Counted from the stretch's first letter, positions 17,629 to 63,913 are shown. The stretch is DNA of 64,000 nt from a virus (IMGVR_UViG_3300032373_000001), one strand, 5' to 3'. The notes: generated by a model not told the origin, from the sequence alone. Numbers and translations: made by a program.

Positions 17629-17656
17629 TGATTTCCTGATCGCTCGCGTGCCGTAA
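17629..17656 (+). promoter_or_regulatory. class-1 promoter motif
   Basis: Exact TGATTTC-N15-CCGTAA upstream of 17796. Confidence 0.75.
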
Positions 17657-17795
17657 TGATTTTGTGGCGTGACCCGTACTCGGTTCGCTGACCGGGTCAG
17701 CCACACGGAGCCCCACCCGCAACGGGAACACTCTCGCTCCGTTCTTCCCACAACGTGACACCAGCCCCCTCCTGAGGGGAAAGGTTTAAAACCAG

Positions 17796-19445
17796 ATGAA
17801 GCTCCAGCTCACCGAAGCTCAGGCATGCGCGTTCGCCGACGACTCAGGCGTGCCCGCCCTCCTCCCGGCTGACCTCACGAAGGCTTTCACACAGCGCTGC
17901 GCAGTCCGCGTTCTGGCAGCTTTCTGTGCGGGCGGGCACGACACCATCACCCGCCGCGACATCATGGGAACCCTGGTTGCCGCCGGATTCCCCGCCAAGC
18001 AGAACCCCAACGGCAAGGTGGTCCGAGGCAAGCTGGGCATCCCCGGCGTCCCCTTCGGCGGCTCCGACTGGGTCGGCGACGTGATGAAGAAGCACTGCTC
18101 GCCCAGCGACCGCCGCAGCTACTGGGACATCACCGGAAAGGTGGAGGTTCCCTCCGAGCCCGAACCTCAGGCAGCCATGGAAGAGGCGTCGGCGGATGAG
18201 GTGATGGCAGCCTTTGCCCTCCTCGACCAGCCCAGCCCGGCCTACCGGGAGCCGCCGACCGCCCAGGAGCAGGACGCCTTCGAGCAGCTGTTCGACCAGG
18301 GCACCCCGCTGCCGTCCGCCGCTGGGGCCAGCGTGCCCTCCCTGACCGGCGACATCGCCTCCCCGACCACCACCCAGGACTACCTGAACCTGCTGGTGGC
18401 GGAGGAGTCCCTCGCTGCGATGGCCGCCATGCCCATCATCACCCCGGCAGCGCGGGCCATCCTGACCTCGACCCTCAAGCAGGTCCGGACGGCACTGCCC
18501 TCCGAAGACCTCGTCAGCGAGTGGGTCACCGACATGCCGCTGGCGGAACTCAAGCGGCGGGTCGCCAAGGGCGAGACGCTCACCTCAATCTGGTTCGAGA
18601 TGGAGATCCGCTACGGAGCGCTCCAGCAGAAGGCAGTCACCCTGATGCGGAAGACCTTCACCATCGAGAACGAGGAAGACCTCGAAGGGGACTTCCGGCT
18701 GGCTCTGGCGAAGTGGTCGGTCTGCGAGCCCCGCAAGAACCTCAGCCCCGGCGGCACCCCCCAGGACCAGTGGAAGGCGGGAGGTTACTGCGACAAGTTC
18801 ATCCTGCAGGGCCAGCCCCCCACCCTCAACAAGCTGATCTACTGGCTGAAGCACAAGGTCACCAGCCGCCTCCAGCGGGAGGGGCAGATCCCGGAACTGC
18901 GGCAGGCCAAGGGCGTCCGCACCCAGCTGGAGCTGACCGAGATCAACGTGAGCGGGGACGCTGGGTTCATGCACCCCGACGCACTGCTCGGCGACCCCAA
19001 CTCCCCCCGAGCGGTCTGGGTCGGTGACATCGAAGACGGCACCCGCCGTCAGGAGTTCGTCGCCCCGGAGAACACCCGCAGCAGCGACTCCCCCCTGGAA
19101 GAGGGGGAGGTCGATGCCCTCATCATCGCCATGAAGATGGCCGGGGTCGAGTGCGCTGAGGCGGTAGTCACCGGCATCCAAGAAGGCAACACCACCGCCG
19201 ATACCCAGGTGGCGCTCCAGGCCGTGGCGGTGCTGGTGGCCAACTCCACCGCCGTCCTGCGGCTGGTGGTCGAAGAGCCCTACAGCACCACCGAAGACCT
19301 CTCCGGAGAGGTCGAGATGGCCCCCGACCAGCTGGCCCTGGCCCTGGACTTCCTCCGGGTCAAGGGCTACCTTGAGGCGCAGGGGGCCTGCTACATCGCC
19401 AGCGATGCGGGTCGGGCAGCGGATCAGATCCAGCTGGTCGCCTGA
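17796..19445 (+). CDS. putative sigma-like/HTH transcription protein
   Basis: 549 aa. EEDLEGDFRLALAKW and KLIYWLKHKVTSRLQR weakly resemble sigma regions 2.2/2.4; C-terminal wHTH-like; N-domain shared with 52171..53139. CDS certain, function weak. Confidence 0.45.
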   Translation: MKLQLTEAQACAFADDSGVPALLPADLTKAFTQRCAVRVLAAFCAGGHDTITRRDIMGTLVAAGFPAKQNPNGKVVRGKLGIPGVPFGGSDWVGDVMKKHCSPSDRRSYWDITGKVEVPSEPEPQAAMEEASADEVMAAFALLDQPSPAYREPPTAQEQDAFEQLFDQGTPLPSAAGASVPSLTGDIASPTTTQDYLNLLVAEESLAAMAAMPIITPAARAILTSTLKQVRTALPSEDLVSEWVTDMPLAELKRRVAKGETLTSIWFEMEIRYGALQQKAVTLMRKTFTIENEEDLEGDFRLALAKWSVCEPRKNLSPGGTPQDQWKAGGYCDKFILQGQPPTLNKLIYWLKHKVTSRLQREGQIPELRQAKGVRTQLELTEINVSGDAGFMHPDALLGDPNSPRAVWVGDIEDGTRRQEFVAPENTRSSDSPLEEGEVDALIIAMKMAGVECAEAVVTGIQEGNTTADTQVALQAVAVLVANSTAVLRLVVEEPYSTTEDLSGEVEMAPDQLALALDFLRVKGYLEAQGACYIASDAGRAADQIQLVA

Positions 19446-19485
19446 CCCCTTGTAGGGTGGCAACCCACCCCCCGACTTCGAACCG

Positions 19486-19518
19486 AATCCCCCAGCCGTC
19501 ACGGCTGGGGGATTTTTT
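19486..19518 (+). terminator. Rho-independent terminator
   Basis: AATCCCCCAGCCGT/ACGGCTGGGGGATT hairpin followed by a T run. Confidence 0.85.
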
Positions 19519-19787
19519 GATTCTGCGTTCGACCCCCACCCTGCAAGGGGTTCCCTCTGTAATGCCCCCAGGAAACGCCTCCTTGGCGTTTCCCTTCCGG
19601 GGCCCATCGGGTATAGGGTGGACGGGCCTCTCTATTTCCCGAAGGGAAGGGAGAGTGTCCTCGGGCCTCCAGCGGGGTTGACGGTTGCTCCAAACCATCT
19701 TCGCTCAGTCTGTAGGGTGCCGAGGCAGGGGAAACCCTGGTGGCAAGGAACTCCACCGCCCACCCTCAATGAGAGTGATCGGCCTCA

Positions 19788-20543
19788 TTGAGCAAAACGG
19801 GAACTAACCAAGGCTCCACCCAAGTGAACCCCGCAGAACAACTCACTCCCCACTACTCCCGACGCCGCGCAGCGGCGAGCGGACGAGTGGGAGTGCTGCC
19901 AGGCTCATGGGTGTCGGGGCTGTCTTGTCAAGGGTGCCCTCCGACCCTCCCTACGCCGTCAGGCGTAGGGAACCAGCTCAAGGTGTTGAGCCGGTCGGAG
20001 ATAAACAGGCCCCCGGCAGGACGTCTTGTCTTCCTGACCGCCGAATCCCAGGAGTCCCCTGCTCTTGCCCCCCTGGCCGAAGGCCAAGCGGCAGTGAGCA
20101 GGTGGATGGATGCCGGAGCCCTCGGAAGAGGGGAATACATTCTTGTTGATTCTGATTCCAACCCTTCAGGGGAAGGAATTGGGTATCAAGAAGAATTGGT
20201 TCAAGGTTTATGCATGGAAGATACCGACTCTAACAACAAGAACCAGATCCTTACTAAGAAGCCTACATCCAAGAACCCTACAACCAATACCAAGAAGCTG
20301 AGTGAGCATAAGCATCTGAGCCCTAAGCAGAACAACAAGAACCCTAAGAAGACAACCAACAAGAAGCTGAACAAGAGTCTGAGTCGTGAGATACTTGCAG
20401 CGATTGAAGTCAGTCGAGAGAGAACTGCTCTGAGTCCGAGAACTGCTCTGAGTCCTGAGAGTGAGAAGAATCTGAGAAGAGATTCTGTCTGTGTCTGGAA
20501 GAAGAGTTCCAGCTACCTGAGTCTTGGAGGGCTTCCAAGATGA
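19788..20543 (+). CDS. doubtful ORF across the A-rich repeat region (K/N/T/S-rich C-half)
   Basis: TTG start, atypical composition, but ATGA overlap with the next gene. Confidence 0.35.
   Translation: MSKTGTNQGSTQVNPAEQLTPHYSRRRAAASGRVGVLPGSWVSGLSCQGCPPTLPTPSGVGNQLKVLSRSEINRPPAGRLVFLTAESQESPALAPLAEGQAAVSRWMDAGALGRGEYILVDSDSNPSGEGIGYQEELVQGLCMEDTDSNNKNQILTKKPTSKNPTTNTKKLSEHKHLSPKQNNKNPKKTTNKKLNKSLSREILAAIEVSRERTALSPRTALSPESEKNLRRDSVCVWKKSSSYLSLGGLPR
20420..20455 (+). repeat. 18-bp tandem direct repeat x2
   Basis: GAGAACTGCTCTGAGTCC at 20420-20437 and 20438-20455. Confidence 0.9.
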
Positions 20544-21079
20544 ACAAGAAGAGATCGAACAACCTTGCCCCCTATCGGACTGCCTTGGAGCTTAGTCGGG
20601 ACTGTAGCGTCCCCTTGATGCTCCTGGTTGAAGGCTATGCAGAGGTTCTGTTCCCCGAAGGGGACAAGAGGTCTGCACCGAGCAAGTGGGTGAAGATCCA
20701 ACAAGTGGGAACCAAGACCGGGGAGCCAGGCTCCTACCAAGCTGTGCCAATCTACATTCTGGCTGAGCAATGGAATCGAGTCTTCGTGCCCTTGTTGAAT
20801 GAGAATGGGTCTCGTCCAGCTACTTGGAGAGGGATCCTACCTGGACTGAACAATAGGGATGTCCAGCTATTGGACTCCATTGTAGGTCCAGGAGGGTCGG
20901 TGCCTTCTGGCTTCGCCGAAGGCGACCTGATCGGGCAGAGTGCTCTGCCGACAGAGAGTCTGGGTCTGCTATACGGCTGTGACCAGTCGATCTTGGATCG
21001 AACTACGGGCAAGACAGTGGACTACTTGAGCCAAGTCACTGCCTTGATCTACAACCAAGCAACCAGCCAGGGCTATTAG
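20540..21079 (+). CDS. hypothetical protein (lower-GC codon usage)
   Basis: 179 aa, GGAGG RBS. Confidence 0.6.
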   Translation: MNKKRSNNLAPYRTALELSRDCSVPLMLLVEGYAEVLFPEGDKRSAPSKWVKIQQVGTKTGEPGSYQAVPIYILAEQWNRVFVPLLNENGSRPATWRGILPGLNNRDVQLLDSIVGPGGSVPSGFAEGDLIGQSALPTESLGLLYGCDQSILDRTTGKTVDYLSQVTALIYNQATSQGY

Positions 21080-21191
21080 GTCTCCCAGCAAGGGGGTCCC
21101 CCCAACTACCGAGCTTGATGTGTGCCCTGCCCACGAAGTGGGCAAAAGCAAGTCACCTTCGGGGGTAGGGCATTCCAAGGAGGAGAGACCC

Positions 21192-21416: not shown

Positions 21417-21473
21417 GCCCCTGCCCGCTACCAGGTAAGTTTGGGTCGTTCTACGACCTGGAGTCCTTGATAG

Positions 21474-29382: not shown

Positions 29383-29415
29383 CCAGCACCTCCTGTTCAC
29401 TCGACTAAAAACGAA

Positions 29416-29449
29416 GCCGACCCCTCTACTTACCGTGAGAGGGGTCGGC
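29416..29449 (-). terminator. terminator-like hairpin between amidoligase and TET/JBP
   Basis: 12-bp stem GCCGACCCCTCT/AGAGGGGTCGGC, followed on the minus strand by TTCGTTTTT. Confidence 0.65.
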
Positions 29450-29473
29450 AGGCCACAACCTTAATGTTCGAGG

Positions 29474-49026: not shown

Positions 49027-49054
49027 CTCAAGTGCCCCCTGCTGGAGTCTGACC

Positions 49055-51289: not shown

Positions 51290-51427
51290 CTTCTTCCCTC
51301 CGGCAGCGCTTACCTGCCGCTCAGTATTGGGGGTTGGATTTTGACTTTCAAAATTGGTGCGGACTACATGCGCAGAATAGCGGGGTGGGGACCCCACCCC
51401 GCCGGTTTCCGGTCGGTTCTGGAAGGG

Positions 51428-51628: not shown

Positions 51629-51683
51629 GGTGCGTCTCCGAGAGGTGTTTAATGTAGGTTACCTCTCGCCAGGGGTCCGCGAA

Positions 51684-52169: not shown

Positions 52170-52170
52170 C

Positions 52171-53139: not shown

Positions 53140-53209
53140 GCGGGATGCTCCTTATCGTGCGCGCGCAGCGCGGCGGATGTAGAGTTGGGGTGGCTCGGGG
53201 CCACTGTCA

Positions 53210-53237
53210 TTACGGTCAAAATCTACGGCGGAAATCA
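53210..53237 (-). promoter_or_regulatory. class-1 promoter motif
   Basis: Exact motif. Confidence 0.75.
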
Positions 53238-53260
53238 ACCCGCCATAGAAATTATAGAAT

Positions 53261-53638
53261 TCACGGGGATGCCGCAGGGTCGGAGGTCAACTGAAAGGAC
53301 ATCCACACTGCTTCGGCGGTGACGGCCATTCGGTTGATCAGTGCCCTGCTGACCTCGTTCCGCCGGATCGAGTAGATCTGCGCGTCGAGCCATCTCTCGT
53401 CGGGGCGGGACCCCACCACCTTGAACACCACCCGACCGGGGATGCTCCCTCCAGTCGGCAAGGTGAAGTTCTTCTCGATGACCACCGTCAGGCGGGCGGG
53501 CTTCATGTTGCAGTTGCAGTTTTCCCCTGGGATGGCAGGCCCGGAGAATGCGAAGGCATGGGCATCCTGCTGAAGGGCCTGGAACTCAGACCATCCCAGC
53601 CCCCGGAAGTACTGCGCCACCTCTGTTGCGGTGTGCAC
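53261..53638 (-). CDS. hypothetical protein
   Basis: 125 aa. Confidence 0.65.
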   Translation of the reverse strand: MHTATEVAQYFRGLGWSEFQALQQDAHAFAFSGPAIPGENCNCNMKPARLTVVIEKNFTLPTGGSIPGRVVFKVVGSRPDERWLDAQIYSIRRNEVSRALINRMAVTAEAVWMSFQLTSDPAASP

Positions 53639-53641
53639 GGC

Positions 53642-55153
53642 TCACCCCCAGCTGAAGTTCTTCTTGGTGCTGGCGTTCTTCGGGAAGATCAAGCCCAGCA
53701 GGACCTCTACCAGCGCGGGAGCCAGCTCCGAGATGTCGCTCACCGAGACGTGAGCGTTGGGGAACTGGGTCTTGACCGCCGAAGCCCCATCACCGATTCC
53801 CACGCCGATGACGTGGATTCCGGCTTCTTCCGCGAGACGAATCTGGCGCCTGACCACCGCCGGGCAGTTGGGCTCCCCGTCCGTCAGGACGCAGATGACC
53901 CTGTGGTTCTCGGTGCGCTCCTGAAGCTCAAGCAGGGCCATCTGGATGCCATCGCTCAAGGGGGTGCCCCCCGCAGCCCGCAGGGTGGGGATCCGCTCCT
54001 GGGCTACGCCCATGTCCTCTCCCCAGTCCTTGAAGATGTCGATGTGGACGGGGTAGTAGCGGTGGGCGTTGGGTGCCGCGTCCTGGCCGTGGTATCCGGA
54101 ACGGTTGTCGCGCGGCCCGATGATCAGGGTGGGGCAGCCCAGTGGGGTGAGGGCATCACCCAGTGCGAACGCGCCCAGCGCGGCGTTCCGGGTGAGGAAC
54201 TGCATGGACCCGCTCTGGTCCATCACCAGAGCGGCGCTGAGGGTTACATCCGGTCGCTGCACGTTTCGCCAGTCCGGGCGCGTGGGACGCCGGTTGGCCT
54301 TGATCTCGGTCATGGTGTGAACCAAGCGGCGACTGCTCAGCCCCCGGCCGCGACGGACCCCGTGGACCTGCTGGCGGACCCGCGCCTGCAACAGTTTGTT
54401 CCGCAGCTTTGCCTTGATGGCGGCAGCGGCTGCCCGCGCCTGGTTCCGGAGTGCGCGGCCGATCTCGGGGGACGCTTTCCCGGCCAAAGCCATGGTGTCG
54501 GTGGTGGGGAACGGGCTGCGCCACAGCTTCTCACCGTACCGCACGGTCCCTTGCTCGGCAGCCGCTGCCGCCTCGACGGCACCCTCCAAGGCGCTGTTGT
54601 TGTCCTTGAGGCCGTCTTCCTCCCCGTTCTCCCACCCTTCCATCAGCTTCTCGGCCAAGGTCTTGGCTTCGTTGGGGTCGTGTCCGCCAGCGCTGTGGTC
54701 GTCGATGTCCTTGTCAGGGAGGCCATCCTCCTCCGGGGAAGAGGAGGATGAGTCCTGGCAGTCGCCGTCGCTCTCCCCCTCGTCGTCTCCCTCGGTGTTT
54801 TGGGGCTCCCCGTCGCTGGGGTCTCCGTCGCCACCGCCAGACGCGGAGGGGTCTGCGTCTTCGTCAGTTTCGCCACCTTCCCCGTTGCCGTCGGAGGACT
54901 CCTCTCCCTCCTCTCCGTCTTGGCTGTCGTCCCCGGAGTCGCTCCCCGAAGACTCCTCGCCTTCTTCCCCGTCGGAGGAATCGCCGTTCCCGTCCTCCTC
55001 ATCGGAGTCCTGGTCATCAGCGTCGTCGCCGGAGCCCTGGCCCTGCTCGTCTTCGCTGTCGGAGGGCTCCTCGTTCTCGCCTTCGGAGCCCTCACCGGAC
55101 GAGTCTTCGTCGTCCTTCCAGCGGGTGACTTCGGTGTTCAGTGCCACGATCAT
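53642..55153 (-). CDS. VWA (MIDAS) domain protein with long acidic N-terminus, CobT-like
   Basis: VMDQSGSM, GGTPLS, VLTDGEPN, VIGVGIG; long D/E/S/G-rich tract. Confidence 0.85.
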   Translation of the reverse strand: MIVALNTEVTRWKDDEDSSGEGSEGENEEPSDSEDEQGQGSGDDADDQDSDEEDGNGDSSDGEEGEESSGSDSGDDSQDGEEGEESSDGNGEGGETDEDADPSASGGGDGDPSDGEPQNTEGDDEGESDGDCQDSSSSSPEEDGLPDKDIDDHSAGGHDPNEAKTLAEKLMEGWENGEEDGLKDNNSALEGAVEAAAAAEQGTVRYGEKLWRSPFPTTDTMALAGKASPEIGRALRNQARAAAAAIKAKLRNKLLQARVRQQVHGVRRGRGLSSRRLVHTMTEIKANRRPTRPDWRNVQRPDVTLSAALVMDQSGSMQFLTRNAALGAFALGDALTPLGCPTLIIGPRDNRSGYHGQDAAPNAHRYYPVHIDIFKDWGEDMGVAQERIPTLRAAGGTPLSDGIQMALLELQERTENHRVICVLTDGEPNCPAVVRRQIRLAEEAGIHVIGVGIGDGASAVKTQFPNAHVSVSDISELAPALVEVLLGLIFPKNASTKKNFSWG

Positions 55154-55182
55154 GGCTCATCTCCAATGCGGGTTCGTAGACG

Positions 55183-55210
55183 TTACGGCAAGGTGGCAGC
55201 GCGGAAATCA
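55183..55210 (-). promoter_or_regulatory. class-1 promoter motif
   Basis: Exact motif. Confidence 0.75.
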
Positions 55211-55663
55211 ACCGATTGAATCTTCCTCGGTCAACCGGAAAACGGCGATCAACCGGCGGGCCGCGTCGTGGTCGCGCGTGTGGATGTTGGGACCGTCTTG
55301 CACGGTTTCTTCGGGGGTCTGGGGCTGCGTTAGGTCCCACAGCATCGCACGGATCGAGCGCAGCTGTTCGCGGGCATCCCCCAGGTCTTGGAGCATCTGG
55401 ACGGTGTCGACGGTCCCTACCCCAGCAGAGCTCTTGAGCCCTCGCAGCGCCTGGGTCATCCATCCCGTTCCGCCCAGCAGCGTATTGAGCCGCTTGAGCA
55501 GAAGCTCTGCGGAGTTGTCTACAAGCAAGGGGATGCCGCTTTCTGCGATCGTCTGGTACGCCCGCACGCGGTTGAGGAGGTTCAACTCCCCGCCGTTGAG
55601 TTCGGCGTTGTGGGTCGCTTCTTCCCACCCATCCCACGGGTTGGGGTTTTCGGTCTGGCTCAT
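55208..55663 (-). CDS. hypothetical helical protein
   Basis: AGGAGG RBS. Confidence 0.7.
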   Translation of the reverse strand: MSQTENPNPWDGWEEATHNAELNGGELNLLNRVRAYQTIAESGIPLLVDNSAELLLKRLNTLLGGTGWMTQALRGLKSSAGVGTVDTVQMLQDLGDAREQLRSIRAMLWDLTQPQTPEETVQDGPNIHTRDHDAARRLIAVFRLTEEDSIG

Positions 55664-55695
55664 CTCTGACCTCCTCCTTTGTCGGGTCGCCTCCG

Positions 55696-55723
55696 TTACG
55701 GGGAGACGACAGGGCGGAAATCA
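55696..55723 (-). promoter_or_regulatory. class-1 promoter motif (divergent pair, leftward)
   Basis: Exact motif. Confidence 0.75.
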
Positions 55724-55743
55724 ACGAAAATTTGCCCGCTGAC

Positions 55744-55771
55744 TGATTTCGCGGCGTGAGTTTTGCCGTAA
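55744..55771 (+). promoter_or_regulatory. class-1 promoter motif (divergent pair, rightward)
   Basis: Exact motif. Confidence 0.75.
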
Positions 55772-55804
55772 CGGAGGCGAACCTCCTCCTCTTGGGGCTA
55801 ATCG

Positions 55805-56053
55805 ATGAACTCATACCTCGACAGCGCCTTCCAGGCCCTCCTCGCTGGCGATAGCGAGACCGCCCTTCTCGCCCTCGCGAGTGCGCTCCAGCAGCGCGAC
55901 GGCGTGCATGGGAACACGGAGGTCGAAACGGTCCTCCCGGCCACCCAGCAGCTGCGTAACGACCAGCTGGCGGTTGTCTTGCGCGGCGAGGACGATGACG
56001 GCATTTCCACGAGCTACGCGCTCGTGCTCACCCTCACCCACGTGGAGAGCTGA
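55805..56053 (+). CDS. small hypothetical protein
   Basis: 82 aa. Confidence 0.6.
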   Translation: MNSYLDSAFQALLAGDSETALLALASALQQRDGVHGNTEVETVLPATQQLRNDQLAVVLRGEDDDGISTSYALVLTLTHVES

Positions 56054-56054
56054 G

Positions 56055-56264
56055 ATGCCCACTACATCGTCCCTCACGAAAGCGCTGCCGAACCCCCAGC
56101 GGTTCGGCCTCCGCCGCTGCCTGCAAATCTTCGGCCAGTGGTGTCCGGGGTCCGAGAACAAGACCCTGTTCTCGGGTGATGTGGTCATGGGAGCCGACGG
56201 TGACCTCTACATCTTCGCCGGGCGAAAAGACGGCGAAAACCTCCTCGACCCCTACGACGGCTGA
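56055..56264 (+). CDS. small hypothetical protein
   Basis: ATG 56055 follows the upstream stop. Confidence 0.6.
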   Translation: MPTTSSLTKALPNPQRFGLRRCLQIFGQWCPGSENKTLFSGDVVMGADGDLYIFAGRKDGENLLDPYDG

Positions 56265-56280
56265 AATTTCTATGGTGGGT

Positions 56281-56308
56281 TGATTTCCTCCCGCCATGCC
56301 CCCCGTAA
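56281..56308 (+). promoter_or_regulatory. class-1 promoter motif
   Basis: Exact motif. Confidence 0.75.
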
Positions 56309-56337
56309 CGCTGATGACCCCACACGGAGAATCCTCC

Positions 56338-57531
56338 ATGGCTACCGTCCTCAAACTCGAAGATCACCGCGTCGGTTGTGCGGAGTGCGACTACCGCAGC
56401 CACAACCTTGCCCCCCACCTCATGGAGGCCCACAACATGAGCGTCGCCCAGTACCAGTCCGCCCACGCTGGGGCGGGCGTTGTCAGCGCAAAGCTGGCCG
56501 ATGCCTACCACAAGCAGGCCCCGACCCGCAAGCCCGCTCCGCGCGAGGTGAAGACCCTCTTCGTGAATTTCATGGGGTTCAGCGTCCAGGTGGACCTCGG
56601 AGTGCAGCCGGGAGCGTGCCTCCCGGCTCCTGGCGGCTGGCGTTGGCCTACCAAGGGCAAGGCAAAGGAAGCGGTCGAGCGCGGCCTGATGGCCCTCATC
56701 CGCCGCCGTCCTTTCCTGTACTGGGGCATGCCCGGTACGGGCAAGGACGCGCTCATCCACCAGTACAGCGCGATGTCCCGGACCCCGGCTGTCATGATCA
56801 GCTTCCGTCCCGGTGAGGACATCGCGCCGATGTTCTACACCCGGAGCATCGACGCGAGCGGCACCGGATGGGAGTACGGTGAGGTCTGGAAGGCTCTTGT
56901 CGACGGTGTCCTCTGCGAAGACGGTGTCCGCCGCGCACCTCTCCTGCTCCTCAGTGACGTCGACCGGGCGGACCAAGAGCAGGCCGAGTGGTTCCGCCTG
57001 TTGACCGACAGCATCTCCAAGCGCATCAAGGGGCCTGATGGCGCTACCTACCCCCTGTTCACCGACGAGTTCGGCAACTCCCCCTTCTTCGTCTGCACCG
57101 CCAACAGCTGCGGTTCGGGGGACAGCCGGGGTCGGATGGCTTCGGCGCGGGTCATGGACGGCTCCATCCTGGACCGCCTGGGTCGGGGCATCCGCGCCCA
57201 CTACCTCCACACGGACGACGAAATCGCCACCTTCGCCGGCATCTTTCCCGACATCCACGCAAGTCACCCCCAGATGATCCCCCAGCTGGTCAAGGCGGTG
57301 GGTGCGGTGCGGCAGGCCATCGAGGCCGAAGAGGTCTACGCGGAATTCACCTTCCGGGGCGTCTACGACGTGCTCTGCGAGGTGGAGGACCTCATGTTCT
57401 TCAAGAAGAGCAAGGACGGTTCCAAGCTGCTCAAGGCCGGTCTCCAGGCGTGGCTGGGCAAGCAGGAAGGTGACACCGCAGCGGAGGCTCGGCGGCTGAT
57501 GGACCCCCACATCAAGGGTGGCACCATCTGA
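56338..57531 (+). CDS. MoxR/CbbQ/CobS-like AAA+ ATPase with an N-terminal C2H2 finger
   Basis: WGMPGTGKD, LLLSDVDRA, CTANS, ILDRL; N-terminal CAEC...HLMEAHNMSVAQY. Confidence 0.85.
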   Translation: MATVLKLEDHRVGCAECDYRSHNLAPHLMEAHNMSVAQYQSAHAGAGVVSAKLADAYHKQAPTRKPAPREVKTLFVNFMGFSVQVDLGVQPGACLPAPGGWRWPTKGKAKEAVERGLMALIRRRPFLYWGMPGTGKDALIHQYSAMSRTPAVMISFRPGEDIAPMFYTRSIDASGTGWEYGEVWKALVDGVLCEDGVRRAPLLLLSDVDRADQEQAEWFRLLTDSISKRIKGPDGATYPLFTDEFGNSPFFVCTANSCGSGDSRGRMASARVMDGSILDRLGRGIRAHYLHTDDEIATFAGIFPDIHASHPQMIPQLVKAVGAVRQAIEAEEVYAEFTFRGVYDVLCEVEDLMFFKKSKDGSKLLKAGLQAWLGKQEGDTAAEARRLMDPHIKGGTI

Positions 57532-57613
57532 GTCGCCACCCCGCCCAGAAGGGGCTCCTCAGAGCCCTGCTTTTGACTCTACCTCTACTCACCCCCGCAC
57601 CAAGGAGCTATCC

Positions 57614-57775
57614 ATGCGAGCCTACGGATTCAAGCCCAAGACCAGCAAGGACGAGGACCGCCCGCGTGACTGGACCAGTCGTCGCGTCAAGAAGGCCCTC
57701 AACCGGCTGCGCGAGCTGAGCAACCGCCGTACTCGTTCCCGTACCCGCCGCGACCTTCGGGGTCAGTGCCGCTGA
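57614..57775 (+). CDS. small Arg-rich protein
   Basis: AAGGAG RBS; 53 aa. Confidence 0.6.
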   Translation: MRAYGFKPKTSKDEDRPRDWTSRRVKKALNRLRELSNRRTRSRTRRDLRGQCR

Positions 57776-57813
57776 TCGGCGGACGATTAACTTTCGGCAA
57801 GCCGAGGATACCC

Positions 57814-58263
57814 ATGAGCAAAGACATTCACCTGAGCTGGGAGCGCTACATGGAGGCACTCGTCCGCATTCGCGGTCGCATCGCCGGGGGCATCAAGGTC
57901 CGCGAGAGCGCGGAGGCCGAGTGTAGCGTGGGGTTCTGCTCCAACATCAAGGTACAGTGGCCCGACCCCCAGGACTACCTCTGGCCCGACCAACCCGACC
58001 GAGTGGTGCCGAAGTACCGTGACGTGGGCCAGGTATGCCCGTTGGACCGCGCCTCACAGACCCCCCTCAGCGAGCACAAGCTGTACCCTTCGGGATGCTA
58101 CTACAGCTGCGAGTTCTTCAACCCGGAGCGCACGGGATGGCTCCCGCCTCGACCGGGGAAAAAGAAGAAGCGGCCAGTCTACCGACAGCTCACCCGCGAG
58201 CGGGTTCTCGCGCTTTACGATGAGCAAATTCGACGCGCCGCCGAATTTTGCGGTTGGGGTTGA
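57814..58263 (+). CDS. Cys-rich hypothetical protein
   Basis: CSVGFC, CPLD, CYYSCEFF. Confidence 0.65.
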   Translation: MSKDIHLSWERYMEALVRIRGRIAGGIKVRESAEAECSVGFCSNIKVQWPDPQDYLWPDQPDRVVPKYRDVGQVCPLDRASQTPLSEHKLYPSGCYYSCEFFNPERTGWLPPRPGKKKKRPVYRQLTRERVLALYDEQIRRAAEFCGWG

Positions 58264-58288
58264 TTTCGGGCGGAGATGGTGCCCGTAA
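58261..58288 (+). promoter_or_regulatory. class-1 promoter motif
   Basis: Exact motif plus CGAGGGTGA. Confidence 0.75.
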
Positions 58289-58318
58289 CGAGGGTGAGCC
58301 CCAACCAAGGAGCCTCTT

Positions 58319-58660
58319 GTGAGCATCATGAAATTCGCCCCCTTCGGACGCCCCCCGACACCTGAGTTGATCGCTTGGGCCCTGGAGGGTCTCGGCAGCG
58401 CCATCCGCGCCATGGGCCTCCAGCGAGTCGAAGTGGCCGTGGCGGTCGCGGACGACCCGTCCGAGGATCAGATCGAGGCGATGGGGAAGCTCCACGGCCA
58501 CTTTGGTGGGCAGTTCGAGCTGGGCGACTACAACTACGAGTTCGTCGCCCGCGTCTTCGAGACCCTCGGCCTCAGCGCCAAGAGCGACAACCTCTCCGAC
58601 GGGGAGCCCCAGCGGTCCACCATCACAGCCCGCATCGACGGCCCCGCCACCTTCTCGTAG
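58319..58660 (+). CDS. hypothetical protein
   Basis: AAGGAG RBS. Confidence 0.7.
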   Translation: MSIMKFAPFGRPPTPELIAWALEGLGSAIRAMGLQRVEVAVAVADDPSEDQIEAMGKLHGHFGGQFELGDYNYEFVARVFETLGLSAKSDNLSDGEPQRSTITARIDGPATFS

Positions 58661-58669
58661 GGGCTTCTC

Positions 58670-59041
58670 ATGAAGTACAAAGGCCATGAGTGGAAACTCA
58701 ACCGCAACTACTGGTGGCGTCCTTTTGACGCCACACGGGACGACCCAGAGGGCAAGATGGAGGGCATCGGCCCCAACTACTGTGTCATCGTCCGCATGGA
58801 AGGGTGTGTCGTGGAGGGCACCGGGTGCATCTCCGGTACGCTGACACGGAGTCAGCCTGCGATCGGGATCGGAGGTTGGTTCGCCACCAACCAGCTGTAC
58901 GGCAAGGCCGTCGCTCACCGGCGAAGCCCTCTGACCGTCGACGGCATCACCTACTCGGAGCACTGGGCCCGTCGGGTGTACCTCGTGTACGACGGCTGGG
59001 TCTACACCCGAACCCACCGCATGATCCAGAAGCCTGGATAA
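58670..59041 (+). CDS. hypothetical protein
   Basis: 123 aa. Confidence 0.7.
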   Translation: MKYKGHEWKLNRNYWWRPFDATRDDPEGKMEGIGPNYCVIVRMEGCVVEGTGCISGTLTRSQPAIGIGGWFATNQLYGKAVAHRRSPLTVDGITYSEHWARRVYLVYDGWVYTRTHRMIQKPG

Positions 59042-59053
59042 ATTGGGACTCGT

Positions 59054-59081
59054 GGATTTCTGCGGCGGTCCCCTCCCGTAA
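59054..59081 (+). promoter_or_regulatory. class-1 promoter variant
   Basis: GGATTTC-N15-CCGTAA (one mismatch), upstream of the structured RNA. Confidence 0.6.
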
Positions 59082-59087
59082 AGTTTG

Positions 59088-59343
59088 TGTGCGCTGAGGA
59101 AGTCGGGGGTTCAACTCCCCCCTCCCCCTCCCCCTTCTGGGGGACAGGGCAGATTCCCCCAGAAGGGGGAGGTCCGGTGAACCTCAGTGAGTGCTGGCAG
59201 GCCACGTTCCTTTTGCCTGCCCGACGCCGATAGGTTCGGCTACCTACCCCCGTGAACGGTTTGACGGTGAGGGGGTGGGGAAGACAGGTCCTGTCCGACA
59301 GTGGTGTCGGGGAAGCGTGCGGGTTCGACTCCCGCCGGGACCT
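59088..59343 (+). ncRNA. structured non-coding RNA ending in an anticodon-armless tRNA-like domain (copy 1; core 59287-59342)
   Basis: Acceptor GGTCCTG/CGGGACC; D-like arm CCGAC-AGTGGT-GTCGG; linker GGAAGCGT; T-arm GCGGG-TTCGACT-CCCGC. Outer boundaries approximate. Confidence 0.7.
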
Positions 59344-59367
59344 TTTCCCACCTAATAGGAGACTCTC

Positions 59368-59637
59368 ATGCTCCTCCGAGCACTCCACGGAACGCCCGGC
59401 CAATGTAACCGGAGCCTCCGCCTTGCGACGATGCTTGGCCTTCGCGAGCGGTTCCTGCTCCGGGGGTTGTGGAGCCAGGCCCCCGAGCAGGCCGTCGAGC
59501 TCGTCTTGTCCCTGGCCCCAGACCACCCCAAGACGGCGCATCTTAGGGAGACCCTCGCCCGCGCCGAGCAGGGAAACTTCGAGGCCGAGGAATCCCTGCG
59601 GGTCGAGTGGGGTCTGTACTGGACCTCCGAAGAATAG
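59368..59637 (+). CDS. small hypothetical protein
   Basis: AGGAG RBS. Confidence 0.65.
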   Translation: MLLRALHGTPGQCNRSLRLATMLGLRERFLLRGLWSQAPEQAVELVLSLAPDHPKTAHLRETLARAEQGNFEAEESLRVEWGLYWTSEE

Positions 59638-59656
59638 AGGATTTTGTCTCGACGGT

Positions 59657-59684
59657 TGATTTCGAGCGTGAATTTTGCCCGTAA
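59657..59684 (+). promoter_or_regulatory. class-1 promoter motif
   Basis: Exact motif plus TGAGGGTGA. Confidence 0.8.
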
Positions 59685-59725
59685 TGAGGGTGATTCTGCA
59701 CCTCACCAACCCGCCGGAGTACGCC

Positions 59726-60109
59726 ATGACTGCCCTCGCCGCCACCGAGACCATCGACAAGCCCCTCACCTCCACCCAGCGCGAGGTCCTGGCCGCCCTC
59801 TCCTTCTGCTTCAAGGCGGACGCCTTCGGCCGGGTCGACTCGAACAAGACGTTCAGCCGCATCAAGACCCTGTACTCCCGGGACAAGGGCACCTACGAGC
59901 ACTGCTTCGCGGTCGCCTGCCCCACGCGGACGATGAACGTGCTCCTCCGCGACGGCTGGATCGAGAAGGTCCCCCAGATCCCCGGCTACTACCGCGGGAA
60001 CGACTATCGCCTCAGCGCGAAGGCGCTGGCCACCGTCGCCCCCGACAGCCAGTGCGACGCAGCCAAGCTGTGGCGCTCCTGCGCGGCAGCGCGCGGCTAC
60101 GACATCTGA
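59726..60109 (+). CDS. winged-helix-like protein
   Basis: LTSTQREVL...TMNVLLRDGWI...YRLSAKA. Confidence 0.6.
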   Translation: MTALAATETIDKPLTSTQREVLAALSFCFKADAFGRVDSNKTFSRIKTLYSRDKGTYEHCFAVACPTRTMNVLLRDGWIEKVPQIPGYYRGNDYRLSAKALATVAPDSQCDAAKLWRSCAAARGYDI

Positions 60110-60122
60110 TCGGATACTGCCC

Positions 60123-60150
60123 ACCCCCTCCCGCTGCGGGAGGGGGTTTT
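60123..60150 (+). terminator. terminator
   Basis: ACCCCCTCCCGC/GCGGGAGGGGGT followed by TTT. Confidence 0.75.
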
Positions 60151-60169
60151 CGCAATTTGGCTCGACGGT

Positions 60170-60197
60170 TGATTTCGGGGGCTGGATTTTGCCGTAA
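60170..60197 (+). promoter_or_regulatory. class-1 promoter motif
   Basis: Exact motif plus TGAGGGTGA. Confidence 0.8.
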
Positions 60198-60229
60198 TGA
60201 GGGTGAACCTGTAATCTAAGGATCCTGCC

Positions 60230-60523
60230 ATGACCGAACTTGAAGGTCAGGTTTTGGTGCTGATGCGCCATTACCACACACACATTCCCGGCATGCGCGC
60301 CGTGCCCCGCGAGTTGGCACGGGACCCCGATGCCTACGTGGGGCACGACGGCCGGGAGGTTCACTGGGGTGAGTCCCTGACCGATCCCTCCGGCCTTATT
60401 GACGCCCCCGAGCCCGCCGTCCGCGCAGCCCTGGATGCTCTTGTTGCTCAGGGTTGGGTCACTAAGGCCATGCGCGGAGGTTCCCCCACCGGAGGTTACG
60501 CCTACCAGGAGAAGTCCCGATGA
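60230..60523 (+). CDS. winged-helix-like protein
   Basis: TELEGQVL...AVRAALDALVAQGWV...GY. Confidence 0.6.
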   Translation: MTELEGQVLVLMRHYHTHIPGMRAVPRELARDPDAYVGHDGREVHWGESLTDPSGLIDAPEPAVRAALDALVAQGWVTKAMRGGSPTGGYAYQEKSR

Positions 60524-61020
60524 CAGTGCAGCGGCCAAGCAAGCCTTCCCCCGCCCCCTCCCGCGCGCTGCTGGAACGCCTCCTTGCCCGGTTGCAGGGC
60601 GTGCGTGCCGGCTTTGTTTCGTCGCACGCCCGCGCCCAGATGGAACGCGACCCGGACCTGGAGATGATCCTGGGCGCGGGAGAGACCTGGCTCCCCGGAG
60701 AAGTGCGCGTGCTCCAGGCCCACGGACCAAACGGGCACTGCCACTGGAACGTCAGCAGGATGTTCCAGCGTGGGGAGATCGACGCCATCGTCCTCGGCTA
60801 TGCCTACACCTACTTGGATGGCTGGCACCAGCACACCTGGGGGTTGAACAAAGGGCCGGTCGATGAGGTCGTTGAGACGACCTCCGGCAACGCCAGCGCG
60901 ACCGTATACTTCGGCGCAGAGTTGATGGAAGATGCCAGCTTCCACTTCGCGGAATGGTGCCACCGCAACGCGCCGGGTCAGGGGAGGGTCCGAAGGGTAC
61001 GCGGGCGGGGCGAAATTTGA
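60520..61020 (+). CDS. hypothetical protein
   Basis: ATGA-coupled; CHWN, GYAY, WHQHTW. Confidence 0.7.
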   Translation: MTVQRPSKPSPAPSRALLERLLARLQGVRAGFVSSHARAQMERDPDLEMILGAGETWLPGEVRVLQAHGPNGHCHWNVSRMFQRGEIDAIVLGYAYTYLDGWHQHTWGLNKGPVDEVVETTSGNASATVYFGAELMEDASFHFAEWCHRNAPGQGRVRRVRGRGEI

Positions 61021-61037
61021 AAAGCATCGCCCCTGGT

Positions 61038-61065
61038 TGATTTCCGCTGACCGCCCAGCCCGTAA
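61038..61065 (+). promoter_or_regulatory. class-1 promoter motif
   Basis: Exact motif. Confidence 0.75.
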
Positions 61066-61105
61066 CGACTACGCACCCACCACCCCACAACATCGGAGCC
61101 TTTTC

Positions 61106-61504
61106 ATGACCGTCGTAGCCATGACCAAGTCCCGCGCCTCCCAGATCAACGCCGACATCGAGGAAGCCCTCAAGCAGGTTGCCGCCAAGCACGCCCTCCA
61201 GTTCCGGACGGAGGGTGGTGTCGTTTTCGACACCCGCGCCAACACCCTCCGGGGCAAGTGGAAGATGACCGGCATCGTTCTGGAAGGCCAGAACACAGGC
61301 AAGCCCTCCGACTTCGACTCCAACGCCAGTCGGGTCGGGGCAAGCCCCGACTGGTGGGGTCAGAAGATCGTCAGCCGGGGCTCGCTCCTGACCGTAGTGG
61401 ACATCAAGCCCCGGAACTCCAAGTACCCCATCATCTGCCAGCACGGCGTCAACGGCCGAAGCTACAAGTTGTCCGTCGACCGGGTCCGCCGCCTGCTGTC
61501 CTGA
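61106..61504 (+). CDS. hypothetical protein
   Basis: GGAG RBS before ATG 61106. Confidence 0.7.
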   Translation: MTVVAMTKSRASQINADIEEALKQVAAKHALQFRTEGGVVFDTRANTLRGKWKMTGIVLEGQNTGKPSDFDSNASRVGASPDWWGQKIVSRGSLLTVVDIKPRNSKYPIICQHGVNGRSYKLSVDRVRRLLS

Positions 61505-61513
61505 CGGCTTCCC

Positions 61514-61550
61514 TCTCCCGGTGTCTCCGGACACCGGGAGATCTGTTTTT
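61514..61550 (+). terminator. terminator
   Basis: TCTCCCGGTGTC-TCCG-GACACCGGGAGA followed by TCTGTTTTT. Confidence 0.8.
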
Positions 61551-61579
61551 GCTTTCTGCTTCTACTCTCGGAGAGTTAA

Positions 61580-61834
61580 ATGCCTGACTTCCTCAAGGAC
61601 CTCGCTGGTATCCTCGGCGACGATGTCGACCTGGGTGCTGTGCCGGTTGTGTCAGAGCGGCTCCAAGAGCGGGCACTGGACCTCGCCCGCTCCTTCGAAA
61701 ACCTCTCCTGCCTCCCGGTGGCAGAGCAAGACAACCCTGCGGCGTGGAACGACCTCTACGCCGAGATCTCTTCCCTCCGCCATGCAGCCTTGAGTGCAGG
61801 GCTCGGGGAATTCTTCGACTGGCTCAACGACTAA
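61580..61834 (+). CDS. small acidic protein
   Basis: 84 aa. Confidence 0.7.
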   Translation: MPDFLKDLAGILGDDVDLGAVPVVSERLQERALDLARSFENLSCLPVAEQDNPAAWNDLYAEISSLRHAALSAGLGEFFDWLND

Positions 61835-61845
61835 AGGGAGTCCTC

Positions 61846-62205
61846 ATGACGAACCGTGTTCGCGTAAACCTCTTCTCCAGCGACCTCGGCAACGCCTCGA
61901 ACGGTGGGGTCTCGGCACGCTTCAAGAAGTTCGCCCTCTACCGAGAGCACCCCTCGGAGGAGCAGGTCCAGGAAGATCTCGCTGCCGGCGTCTGCCCGCT
62001 GCTGGTGGTGCACCGTCCCAACCCCGACGTGTATCCGCCCTACGCCCGCCCCGTTCTCGACCAGGGTGGCATCGGCCCCATGTACGGAGGCTGCATCGTT
62101 CATGCCTCCGACAGCCGCTACAAGGATGTGGTCGGCAGCTTCCACCCGCTGAAGCTGCACGACCGCTGGGAGTCCCAAGCCCTCTACAACCGCCTCTGCA
62201 ACTGA
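61846..62205 (+). CDS. conserved-looking hypothetical protein
   Basis: SNGGVS...MYGG...SDSRY...LHDRWE. Confidence 0.7.
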   Translation: MTNRVRVNLFSSDLGNASNGGVSARFKKFALYREHPSEEQVQEDLAAGVCPLLVVHRPNPDVYPPYARPVLDQGGIGPMYGGCIVHASDSRYKDVVGSFHPLKLHDRWESQALYNRLCN

Positions 62206-62216
62206 AGGAGCCCGCT

Positions 62217-63002
62217 ATGAACCCTATCCGCCGAGCCTTCTATTGGTTCACCTCCAAGCACGGTCCTCGCGAGGGAGCCCTGGTCCTCCGGGACCGCAGC
62301 GTCGTCCCCCTCAACTTCACCGACCCGAACGATCGCGCGAAGGTCGGCGTCAACGAGTCCCAGGCCATCGCCCTGGCGGTCCTCGTCCCCAAGACCGGCG
62401 AGTGGGACTGCAAGATGCAGGCAGCGGTGGGCACCGTGAGCCGCACCGTCGCGGGGAACGGGACCACAGCAGCAGAAGCCATCGAGGACGTCTTCGAGAA
62501 GGCCAACGCCTGGAGGGCTGAGGAGACAGCCCTCCAGGCGGACCCTGTTGCACTCCTGGAGCGAGCACTCAAGGGCCACAACTGGTACAGCCACTTCTCG
62601 GATGACCACCGCACCTACGTCGCGGGGCGCCAGTCCGGGGAAGAGATCGACACCTTGGTGGGCGAGGTCCCCGCTGACGTGGCGTTCCGCCTCTGGACCC
62701 AGCACGCCCCGGATGATGTGTTCTTCCCGGCCTCCCGTGCCCCTGCGCTCCGCAACGCGGTGACCCAGGATGATGTCCCTGACGGCGACATCCACGTTAT
62801 TCGCAAGCTGCCTCTGTGCCGCAGCACCGAGTACGAGGCGTGGAACCCGAGCGGCGCTCTCACCCGCGTGGACGAGCTGGTGACCCTTCCCGGCTGGGGC
62901 CAGTACGATCCCACCATGTTCGCACTCGTCTACGACACTGAGGACCTCGCGGAGGGCGGGGACAAGATGCCGGTCTGGGTCCCGGTTGAGCTGGGGGCTT
63001 GA
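62217..63002 (+). CDS. hypothetical protein
   Basis: AAGGAG RBS before ATG 62217. Confidence 0.7.
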   Translation: MNPIRRAFYWFTSKHGPREGALVLRDRSVVPLNFTDPNDRAKVGVNESQAIALAVLVPKTGEWDCKMQAAVGTVSRTVAGNGTTAAEAIEDVFEKANAWRAEETALQADPVALLERALKGHNWYSHFSDDHRTYVAGRQSGEEIDTLVGEVPADVAFRLWTQHAPDDVFFPASRAPALRNAVTQDDVPDGDIHVIRKLPLCRSTEYEAWNPSGALTRVDELVTLPGWGQYDPTMFALVYDTEDLAEGGDKMPVWVPVELGA

Positions 63003-63041
63003 CCGCACCGTAAGTCGAAGTGTCCGAAGGGAAACCAATTT

Positions 63042-63197
63042 GAAGGAGGCGGCCATGAAGTGAGCACGTGAATCCGTGTGGGAAAACTGTTGTGCCCGAT
63101 AGCCCCCGTGAACGCGAGACGGTGAGGGGGCTGGGATAGGGTCCTGTCCGGTGGAAGGTGCCGGGGAAGTGCGTGGGTTCGAACCCCACCAGGGCTC
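63042..63197 (+). ncRNA. structured non-coding RNA, anticodon-armless tRNA-like domain (copy 2; core 63140-63196)
   Basis: Acceptor GGTCCTG/CAGGGCT; arm CCGGT-GGAAGGT-GCCGG; linker GGAAGTGC; T-arm GTGGG-TTCGAAC-CCCAC. Confidence 0.7.
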
Positions 63198-63214
63198 ATC
63201 GAAGAGGAGAAGCC

Positions 63215-63475
63215 GTGGCCGTGGTTGATGACATACCTACTCTGACCCTGTATCGCTACTGCGACGACATCCGAGATGCGGATGCGTGGCAACAGCGCAT
63301 CCAGTCGGTCGCGGGCAGCCGCGTGGAACGCGATCACGATTTCATCTACGTGAGGGTGCCGACCTACCTGCTCGGAGAGGCTCAGCGGGAATTGGGGGAG
63401 GACGGCATCGGGTTCGCGGGTGATGGGCGGATTTACCCCCTCGCCACCGAAGAGGACTACTCCCCTCGGGAGTAG
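63215..63475 (+). CDS. small hypothetical protein
   Basis: GAGGAG RBS before GTG 63215. Confidence 0.65.
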   Translation: MAVVDDIPTLTLYRYCDDIRDADAWQQRIQSVAGSRVERDHDFIYVRVPTYLLGEAQRELGEDGIGFAGDGRIYPLATEEDYSPRE

Positions 63476-63492
63476 TCCCCCTGCCTGCCGCG

Positions 63493-63519
63493 ACCCCGCC
63501 CCTTCCAGGGCGGGGTTTT
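63493..63519 (+). terminator. terminator
   Basis: ACCCCGCCC/GGGCGGGGT followed by TTT. Confidence 0.7.
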
Positions 63520-63539
63520 CGGGATTTTGGGCCCGCGGT

Positions 63540-63567
63540 TGATTTCCGTCGTTGAATTCGCCCGTAA
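63540..63567 (+). promoter_or_regulatory. class-1 promoter motif
   Basis: Exact motif plus TGAGGGTGA. Confidence 0.8.
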
Positions 63568-63612
63568 TGAGGGTGAACCCCCACCCGCGCCCCGGCGCGG
63601 AGGAGCGAATCG

Positions 63613-63849
63613 ATGCTGAACACCCAGAACATGGCCTGGAACCCGACTACGCGCACCCTCAGCGCGGAGGCCAGCACGCTGGGCCTCGTGCGCGGTCGCC
63701 CGCTGCCCGCCAACCCGGTCGTCCTCTCCCACCACACGGGCGAGATCCGCCAGTTCACCTTCGCCCGCAACGACATGACCCCGGACGCAGAAATTGCCGG
63801 CTGGTGGTTCCGCAGCGGCGACCTCAACCTCCTCCTCATCAACGACTGA
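63613..63849 (+). CDS. small beta-rich protein (paralog of 49055..49342)
   Basis: GGAGGAG RBS. Confidence 0.7.
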   Translation: MLNTQNMAWNPTTRTLSAEASTLGLVRGRPLPANPVVLSHHTGEIRQFTFARNDMTPDAEIAGWWFRSGDLNLLLIND

Positions 63850-63858
63850 AAGCGGCCC

Positions 63859-63887
63859 AAAAGGGCTGACCGGCGGTCAGCCCTTTT
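63859..63887. terminator. terminator
   Basis: AAAAGGGCTGACC-GGC-GGTCAGCCCTTTT. Confidence 0.85.
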
Positions 63888-63913
63888 ATTTCCGCCCCTG
63901 ATTGTGCCCGTAA
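63886..63913 (+). promoter_or_regulatory. class-1 promoter variant overlapping the terminator tail
   Basis: TTATTTC-N15-CCGTAA (one mismatch). Confidence 0.6.

Follow-up and report, generated by a model that had tools for sequence, protein, structure and literature searches.

A Putative Promoter Class with the Signal TGATTTC-N15-CCGTAA in an Uncultured Huge Phage

Genomic Context of the Motif

Nearly all knowledge of huge phages comes from metagenomes, and how their genes are expressed is essentially unmapped. Here, we studied a two-block motif, TGATTTC-N15-CCGTAA, in a stretch of viral DNA of 64,000 nucleotides (nt) (IMGVR_UViG_3300032373_000001), which is called the window below. An earlier reading of the same DNA, referred to as the original prediction, had taken the motif for the promoter of a regulon. 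A conserved phage promoter for an alternative sigma factor is a well-known kind of element and is not surprising in itself. A promoter class as sharply defined as this one would allow the likely early or host-takeover gene set to be delimited from sequence only, namely about 60 ORFans, with more elsewhere in the genome. Such a class marks out transcription units as well and helps in the annotation of huge phages.

The window is phage DNA. Positions 1 to 44 kb carry replication and nucleotide genes, including those of a RecD-like helicase, a class II ribonucleotide reductase and a UvsX/RecA-like recombinase, together with clamp-loader and clamp-type proteins, DNA methylases and nucleases. The region that follows contains mostly small ORFan genes and nearly all copies of the motif.

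A pattern scan of IMG/VR detected one contig with several motif copies, IMGVR_UViG_3300032373_000002 (Ga0316204_10000685; 115,448 bp; CheckV completeness 22%). The last 127 bases of this contig are the exact reverse complement of window positions 63874-64000, and an independent assembly bridges the junction (Logan contig SRR9045884_28792, 137,957 bp, 100% identity across 20,315 bases). The window end thus continues into Ga0316204_10000685. The two contigs belong to a single uncultured phage genome of more than 500 kb, a size in keeping with the CheckV value, that was split by the source assembly. Contigs from three DNA runs represent the identical phage with zero variants; a search for RNA runs covering window positions 54500-64000 found none. 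The joined sequence of 179 kb was used for the analyses below.

Number and Spacing of the Motif Copies

The 15 exact copies that the original prediction had listed were all found in the window at their coordinates and strands, compared with a mean of 0.00 in 100 dinucleotide-preserving shuffles. Both of its variants, 59054(+) with GGATTTC and 63886(+) with TTATTTC, were also present and differ from the motif by one mismatch each. When up to two mismatches were allowed, 18 matches occurred in the window versus 0.39 expected. The additional two-mismatch match, 25205(-), lies within the ribonucleotide reductase gene and antisense to it, and is probably due to chance. The G+C content of the window is 62.5%, so that the T-rich first half of the motif stands out.

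The motif scan of the whole sequence, which had been proposed as a check, was run on the joined 179 kb and gave 27 sites (23 exact copies and four with one mismatch), ten of which lie beyond the window's 17 on the adjoining contig. By itself, Ga0316204_10000685 carries eight exact copies and three variants. The spacer was exactly 15 nt in all 27 sites; that is, two conserved blocks are held at a fixed distance of about two helical turns. In a scan of spacer lengths, 15 nt gave 23 matches whereas lengths of 12-14 and 16-19 nt gave none. Thirteen positions are invariant among the 23 exact copies, and 23 of the 34 TGATTTC words in the 179 kb are part of the motif. The second block, CCGTAA, was the most enriched 6-mer upstream of genes (39 genes versus 4.1 expected).

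Nearly all sites (26 of 27) are clustered in one 33-kb block at joined positions 44.6-77.2 kb, and the exception is the site at 17629. The repeated core is about 60 nt long, and the flanking sequence beyond it is not repeated among the sites. In the three DNA runs we also detected contigs in which promoter-like 40-mers have different flanks that are absent from the 179 kb, which hints at further motif copies elsewhere in the genome.

Relation of the Sites to Genes

Every one of the 27 sites is co-oriented with the next gene. The window copies all lie at gene boundaries and point downstream, as had been claimed, and in two of them (48999 and 58261) the TGA of the motif is the stop codon of the upstream gene. 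At most sites, a start codon with a ribosome site of the GGAG type follows 23-50 nt after CCGTAA ends. Longer distances were found at four sites (60, 70, 70 and 90 nt), at 17629 (139 nt) and at 59054 (about 286 nt). The strand of the sites flips exactly with the strand of the genes: two minus sites serve 44284-45211, two plus sites serve 45445-49739, three minus sites serve 49742-55663, and plus sites follow from 55744 on.

The 33-kb block contains about 60 mostly small ORFan genes (median 113 amino acids, aa) and 26 sites, arranged in units of one to seven genes. When the first genes of 24 units were scanned, the Pfam matches were weak (three genes) and only DUF6011 was above noise, while eight genes had matches to PHROG families without a known function. 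Several sites have a GC-rich hairpin with a T run immediately in front of them; at 60170, 63540, 64315, 65585 and 69410 the hairpin energies range from -21 to -33 kcal/mol. At some sites the T-rich first half of the motif appears to serve also as the terminator tail.

Individual Sites in the Window

The sites described in this section are exact copies except for the two variants. The sole copy in the replication module, 17629-17656(+), lies in the divergent gap opposite a 483-aa gene (16075-17526(-)), and a leader of 139 nt connects it with a 549-aa ORFan (17796-19445(+)). The same gap holds a perfect 16-bp palindrome, CTACGGATATCCGTAG (17535-17570), just upstream of the 483-aa gene. Each arm of this palindrome contains CCGTAG, which is one base off CCGTAA.

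The ORFan block begins with 44616-44643(-), which lies 32 nt before the ATG of a 99-aa gene (44284-44583(-)) and has a GC-rich hairpin and a T run upstream. Two back-to-back pairs had been predicted and both are real. The first consists of 45282-45309(-), with a 70-nt leader to a 176-aa gene (44681-45211(-)), and 45385-45412(+), which lies 32 nt before a 154-aa gene (45445-45909(+)) and heads a unit of about seven genes. It is followed by 48999-49026(+), 28 nt before a 95-aa gene (49055-49342(+)), and by 53210-53237(-), which again has a 70-nt leader, here to a 322-aa gene (52171-53139(-)).

The two 70-nt leaders (45212-45281 and 53140-53209, both minus) share a near-identical promoter core. 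Directly before the ribosome site, both contain a GC-rich self-complementary box, CCGCCGCGCTG[A/C]GCGCGCA, which may be a leader hairpin or an operator. The 176-aa and 322-aa proteins downstream of them are unrelated.

The site 55183-55210(-) lies 29 nt before a 503-aa gene with a von Willebrand A (VWA) domain (53642-55153(-)). The second pair is tight: 55696-55723(-) precedes a 151-aa gene (55208-55663(-)) by 32 nt, and 55744-55771(+) precedes by 33 nt an 82-aa gene (55805-56053(+)) that is also called by an external pipeline. Only 20 nt separate the two TGATTTC words of this pair, and an AAAATTT tract is common to both sites. Next come 56281-56308(+), 29 nt before a 397-aa gene with a weak AAA_5 match (56338-57531(+)), and 58261-58288(+), 30 nt before a 113-aa gene (58319-58660(+)).

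The variant 59054-59081(+) is followed by about 286 nt without a called gene and then by an 89-aa gene (59368-59637(+)). The interval 59082-59367 may represent a promoter-driven non-coding RNA. It contains a T-arm-like hairpin (59102-59121) with a match to a tmRNA 3' end below threshold, a long hairpin (59127-59172), and a tRNA-like acceptor/T-arm fold (59287-59342) that scored 24.3 bits with the mascRNA model against a cut-off of 42.5 bits. Rfam scans at gathering thresholds and tRNA scans reported nothing in the window.

The remaining window sites are all on the plus strand. The first, 59657-59684, lies 41 nt before a 127-aa gene (59726-60109(+)). A hairpin of -23.8 kcal/mol with a T run is found upstream of 60170-60197, which precedes a 97-aa gene (60230-60523(+)) by 32 nt. 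The site 61038-61065 heads a five-gene unit and lies 40 nt before its first gene, which encodes 132 aa (61106-61504(+)). Upstream of 63540-63567 there is a hairpin of -24.4 kcal/mol with TTTT, and a 78-aa gene follows at 45 nt (63613-63849(+)). The variant 63886-63913 is followed after 23 nt by a 104-aa gene, which begins at 63937 and crosses the window end into the adjoining contig; here, the preceding hairpin and the T-rich first half of the motif resemble an intrinsic terminator.

Structure of the Extended Signal

Over the 27 sites, the conserved signal exceeds 28 nt. Between 11 and 17 nt upstream of TGATTTC there is an A/T tract (GAATTTT), and the A/T fraction reaches 0.70-0.78 at -15 to -12 versus a background of 0.38. 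This tract is about 47-53 nt upstream of the predicted transcription start, which is the position of an UP element. A G and then a T usually precede TGATTTC, so that the first half of the signal becomes TTGATTTC. The original prediction described a spacer of 15 nt with variable sequence. Its length is indeed constant and its sequence does vary, but it is not random: GATTTTG is common before CCGTAA and places a TG one base before that block in roughly 40% of the sites. GATTT-like words occur three times per site (upstream, in the first half and in the spacer). Downstream of CCGTAA, the consensus is Y-G-A-n-G-G-T-G-A-n-C-C. A G was found 8 nt after CCGTAA in 26 of 27 sites, preceded by T in 19 and followed by A in 19.

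The word TTGATT is present in 21 of the 27 sites and agrees with TTGACA at four of six positions. The spacer counted from TTGATT is 17 nt. If TTGATT is taken as the -35 hexamer with this canonical spacer, the conserved G falls at the expected transcription start.

The motif very probably represents a promoter class, because of its fixed two-block geometry, the co-orientation with genes, the short distance to the ribosome-binding site and start codon, the terminator hairpins upstream, the A/T tract and the near-invariant G. In such promoters, TTGATTTC would be the -35 element and CCGTAA the -10 element, separated by the 15-nt spacer (17 nt from TTGATT). The conserved G, 8 nt further on, is the predicted start of transcription and would give leaders of about 16-43 nt before the ribosome-binding site. 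The A/T tract would sit where the alpha subunits of RNA polymerase bind UP elements. On this model, 26 of the 27 copies would head units of one to seven genes insulated by hairpin terminators, a layout known from early or host-takeover regions of phages, and the remaining copy at 17629 would drive the 549-aa ORFan in the replication module. Early timing is something we infer solely from the kind of genes driven.

Search for the Recognition Factor

No sigma region or RNA polymerase family was matched by the 88 window proteins. In the 115-kb contig, there was no match to Sigma70_r2, r4_2 or r4 and no beta-like polymerase domain. PF00940 (T7-like polymerase) was also unmatched in this contig, and since it was unmatched in the control genomes too, that result is uninformative.

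A 200-aa protein encoded about 4.4-5.0 kb before the window start contains two Sigma70_r4 stretches (E-value 2.3e-11, above the curated cut-off). Judged from these domain matches, the phage encodes sigma-type DNA-reading modules. Jumbo phages whose replication genes are T4-like have been reported to encode sigma factors while lacking genes for RNA polymerase (PMC7824862), and the window has a UvsX-like recombinase with clamp-loader and clamp-type genes but no polymerase match. The start of the 200-aa protein is overlapped by a neighbour of 266 aa in which a weak KOW (NusG/Spt5-like) motif was detected. Together they occupy the opposite strand about 3.6-5.0 kb ahead of the window, at the boundary with the structural genes, and CGGTAG-N5-CTAT precedes the gene next to them.

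The 483-aa and 549-aa genes that flank the site at 17629 were considered as sigma candidates and are not counted as such: they have no sequence match in Pfam, PHROG or the PDB, and atlas look-ups were weak. The 483-aa family comprises 42 homologues (about 42 metagenome clusters). The structure model of its member in the window is helical and confident, with a predicted local distance difference test score (pLDDT) of 80.5, and had no Foldseek match and no PDB match; the only structural resemblance was that of residues 247-351 to a sigma-H fragment (Z score 4.6), at the level of noise. For the 549-aa protein, one partial homologue was found. In two short related contigs the 483-aa homologue is again divergently paired with another gene, and in one of these contigs it lies near clamp-loader and reductase genes.

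Relatives and Host

Among 50,697 deposited phage records, no close relative was found by nucleotide match or by match to the VWA protein, and IMG/VR contained no relative by way of the VWA protein or the 483-aa family. The best phage matches of the ribonucleotide reductase were roseobacter phages, with about 40% identity.

It had been hoped that the motif would point to the host, and this hope failed. We scanned 185,579 species genomes with the extended motif, to which YG-N4-TG had been added; there were 76 single hits and no genome with two, and this pattern would miss a host regulon having the two core blocks alone. Roughly estimated, chance alone would give about 100 hits or more, in agreement with the 76 found. 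The core motif occurred at most twice per genome in 401 alphaproteobacterial genomes, with 19 hits in all versus seven for a control pattern. In 241 million metagenome records, more than one copy of the extended motif was found solely in the phage's own contig. Among the metagenome records and IMG/VR, the motif is private to this phage.

A hypermodification cluster for thymidine or cytosine lies at window positions 28219-37581. It includes a Tet/JBP oxygenase (28219-29382(-)), a 492-aa fusion protein that combines a low-molecular-weight phosphatase with an amino-acid:DNA transferase/aGPT-pyrophosphorylase-like domain (31203-32681(-)) and a 525-aa protein whose C-terminal domain is ThyX-like (36004-37581(-)). 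The virion DNA, including the promoters, is probably base-modified.

Proposed Explanation

Our preferred explanation is that the sites are sigma-dependent promoters used by the host core RNA polymerase with a dedicated non-housekeeping sigma factor, most likely encoded by the phage; we give this explanation a probability of about 0.55. The dedicated non-housekeeping factor is proposed because the sequence is near-invariant, the -10 element is of the CGTA type and no host regulon was found. The narrower claim that the specificity differs from that of a housekeeping sigma is likely. If the factor is phage-encoded, it would form with its promoter a compact and orthogonal sigma-promoter pair.

Several observations weigh against this explanation. 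No complete sigma gene was found in the 179 kb, and none that is autoregulated via the motif. If the promoters are immediate-early, a phage sigma would need either to be injected or to be expressed beforehand from other promoters, and there was no sign of either. In its -35 half, the motif does not have the AAC that is typical of most extracytoplasmic function (ECF) sigma groups. The partial TGn and the UP-like features suit group 1-3 sigmas better than ECF-type sigmas, which do not have the region that would read TGn. The motif is also absent from the syntenic divergent region next to the 483-aa homologue in the two short contigs, which come from distant relatives.

Alternative Explanations

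A host alternative sigma could read the sites instead, for example an ECF11 (RpoE-ChrR)-like factor or a stress sigma present in light-exposed mat bacteria; we regard this as unlikely. The original prediction had noted a resemblance to ECF promoters. The comparison with ECF consensus sets, which it had also proposed, showed that ECF11 has the nearest published consensus and that the motif does not conform to any known group. CGTA is an ECF-type -10 sequence, and ECF promoters are reported to have CGTA -10 elements, tight adherence to the consensus and spacers of 14-17 nt (PMC5758882). From the sequence, the comparison is fair for the -10 half. The ECF11 consensus is TGATCC-N16-CGTA for PSPTO_1043 of Pseudomonas syringae (PMC5507510) and TGATCC(N15)GCGTA in Rhodobacter sphaeroides (PMC5036791). 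The phage signal resembles it in having two blocks about two helical turns apart, with TGAT opening the -35 element, CGTA within the -10 element (25 of 27 sites) and sites close to the consensus.

However, TGATCC was found in none of the 27 sites. The phage motif has TGATTTC, with an extra base in the -35 element, agrees with the ECF11 -35 half at four of six positions, and, with TGAT aligned, has a spacing of 17 nt up to CGTA in place of 16. Its -10 element extends to CCGTAA, and the phage signal further includes an A/T tract upstream and conservation around the start. No cognate sigma/anti-sigma pair lies near the phage sites, and the genes are phage ORFans, not a stress regulon. A host factor would have the advantage that no phage factor is needed at time zero. 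The roseobacter phage matches of the reductase also fit, in that proteobacteria carry RpoE-ChrR. Nevertheless, ECF sigmas are normally inhibited by anti-sigma factors, which makes them a poor basis for early expression, and no regulon was found in the 185,579 species (extended motif) or the 401 alphaproteobacteria (core motif).

Other alternative sigma factors were compared in the same way. The promoters of sigma-W in Bacillus subtilis (tGAAAC ... CGTA; PMC5758882) also have a CGTA -10 element, T-rich sequence next to the -35 element and a tight consensus, but the phage -35 element is without the AAC core, and the spacing and flanking elements differ. Sigma-28 (FliA) promoters have the consensus TAAA-N15-GCCGATAA. 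By this consensus, the 15-nt spacer and the CCG..TAA form of the -10 half are common to both, whereas the phage -10 element is one base shorter (CCGTAA versus CCGATAA) and the -35 elements are unrelated.

A second alternative is the host housekeeping sigma, either with an unusual host -10 preference or with a phage protein that takes over -35 recognition, as T4 MotA/AsiA do. This seems to us slightly less credible than an alternative sigma of the host. It would account for the four-of-six agreement of TTGATT with TTGACA at the canonical 17-nt spacer, for the TG in roughly 40% of the sites and for the A/T tract at the UP position. GGTAA or CGTAA without a -35 element precedes about 45 other genes, an arrangement in which classes share the -10 element but differ upstream, much as in the early and middle promoters of T4. 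The two sigma-region-4 stretches of the 200-aa phage protein could also be fitted in, except that the gene for this protein heads structural genes, which suggests a late role. Housekeeping sigmas need A at -11 and T at -7 of the -10 element, but CCGTAA, in the canonical register, places C at -11 and A at -7. Invariance at 13 positions across the 23 copies is also tighter than is usual for housekeeping promoters. The original prediction was right to separate the motif from TTGACA/TATAAT promoters: at 10 or more of 12 matches, the sigma-70 consensus was found nowhere in the 179 kb (1.4 expected), and sigma-70-consensus promoters were not enriched at 44-64 kb (three versus 1.7 expected).

Classical early regions bear on the same question. 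Among large lytic phages, T4 has its early promoters and SPO1 a host-takeover module with many early promoters and terminators, and in both the early promoters fit the host housekeeping consensus. The phage block is similar in its dense, similar promoters and terminators before small genes of unknown function, in adjoining replication genes and in the distinct promoter classes for other gene sets. Its consensus, in contrast, fits no housekeeping sigma. The SPO1 cascade is summarised in PMC13401047. No paper in the literature that we searched gave both motif words as a promoter consensus.

It is improbable, though conceivable, that a phage sigma or a sigma-region-4 'appropriator' is packed in the capsid and injected, so that the host core enzyme starts at the motif without host sigma. 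As further parts of this idea, recognition might depend on hypermodified thymidines concentrated in the T-rich -35 half, and second and third promoter classes with the common GTAA core would then take over.

A sigma-independent phage RNA polymerase, single-subunit or phiKZ-like multisubunit and possibly packaged in the virion, is very doubtful. The sites are highly uniform and have a conserved start region, as in T7-type promoters, and huge phages sometimes carry their own polymerases (PMC7598289). Two blocks with 15 variable bases between them are nevertheless unlike the contiguous promoters of single-subunit enzymes, and no beta-like domain was detected in the adjoining contig and no polymerase family among the window proteins. 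The variable 15-nt spacer rules out a contiguous T7-type promoter, in which about 18-23 nt across the start site form a single block.

A non-promoter role is equally hard to credit, whether the motif were bound as an operator by a phage DNA-binding protein, marked a site of recombination or a cassette junction, or belonged to a terminator module. Such a role would suit the three GATTT-like words per site, the overlap of several sites with terminator hairpins and an ORFan block that could consist of mobile cassettes. It would not easily account for the co-orientation, the constant distance to ribosome-binding site and start codon, the divergent pairs where the strand changes or the purine conserved at the predicted start, and the flanks are not repeated beyond the core of about 60 nt.

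A Second Promoter Element

In about 45 other genes, among them much of the replication module, a shorter element, (C/G)GTAA (GGTAA or CGTAA), lies 15-65 nt upstream of the start codon and TGATTTC is absent. In window positions 1-44000 and the joined contig, GGGTAA, CGGTAA and GGTAAT were enriched 5- to 7-fold upstream of genes. By its sequence, the element looks like a separate promoter class with a common GTAA core, and the TGATTTC class would then be one of at least two. Common -10-like cores combined with class-specific upstream parts recall temporal cascades such as that of T4.

Group-3 SigF promoters of Synechocystis have TAGGC at -32 and GGTAA at -12 (PMC2532724). GGTAA is thus the same as the second element of the phage, which has no -35 part, and GTAA is shared with CCGTAA. 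The TGATTTC class differs in having CCGTAA instead of GGTAA and no TAGGC at -32, and nothing ties the phage to cyanobacteria. Examples of the second element in the window are found at 8703-8741, 11470-11551, 15933-16074, 21417-21473 and 29383-29473.

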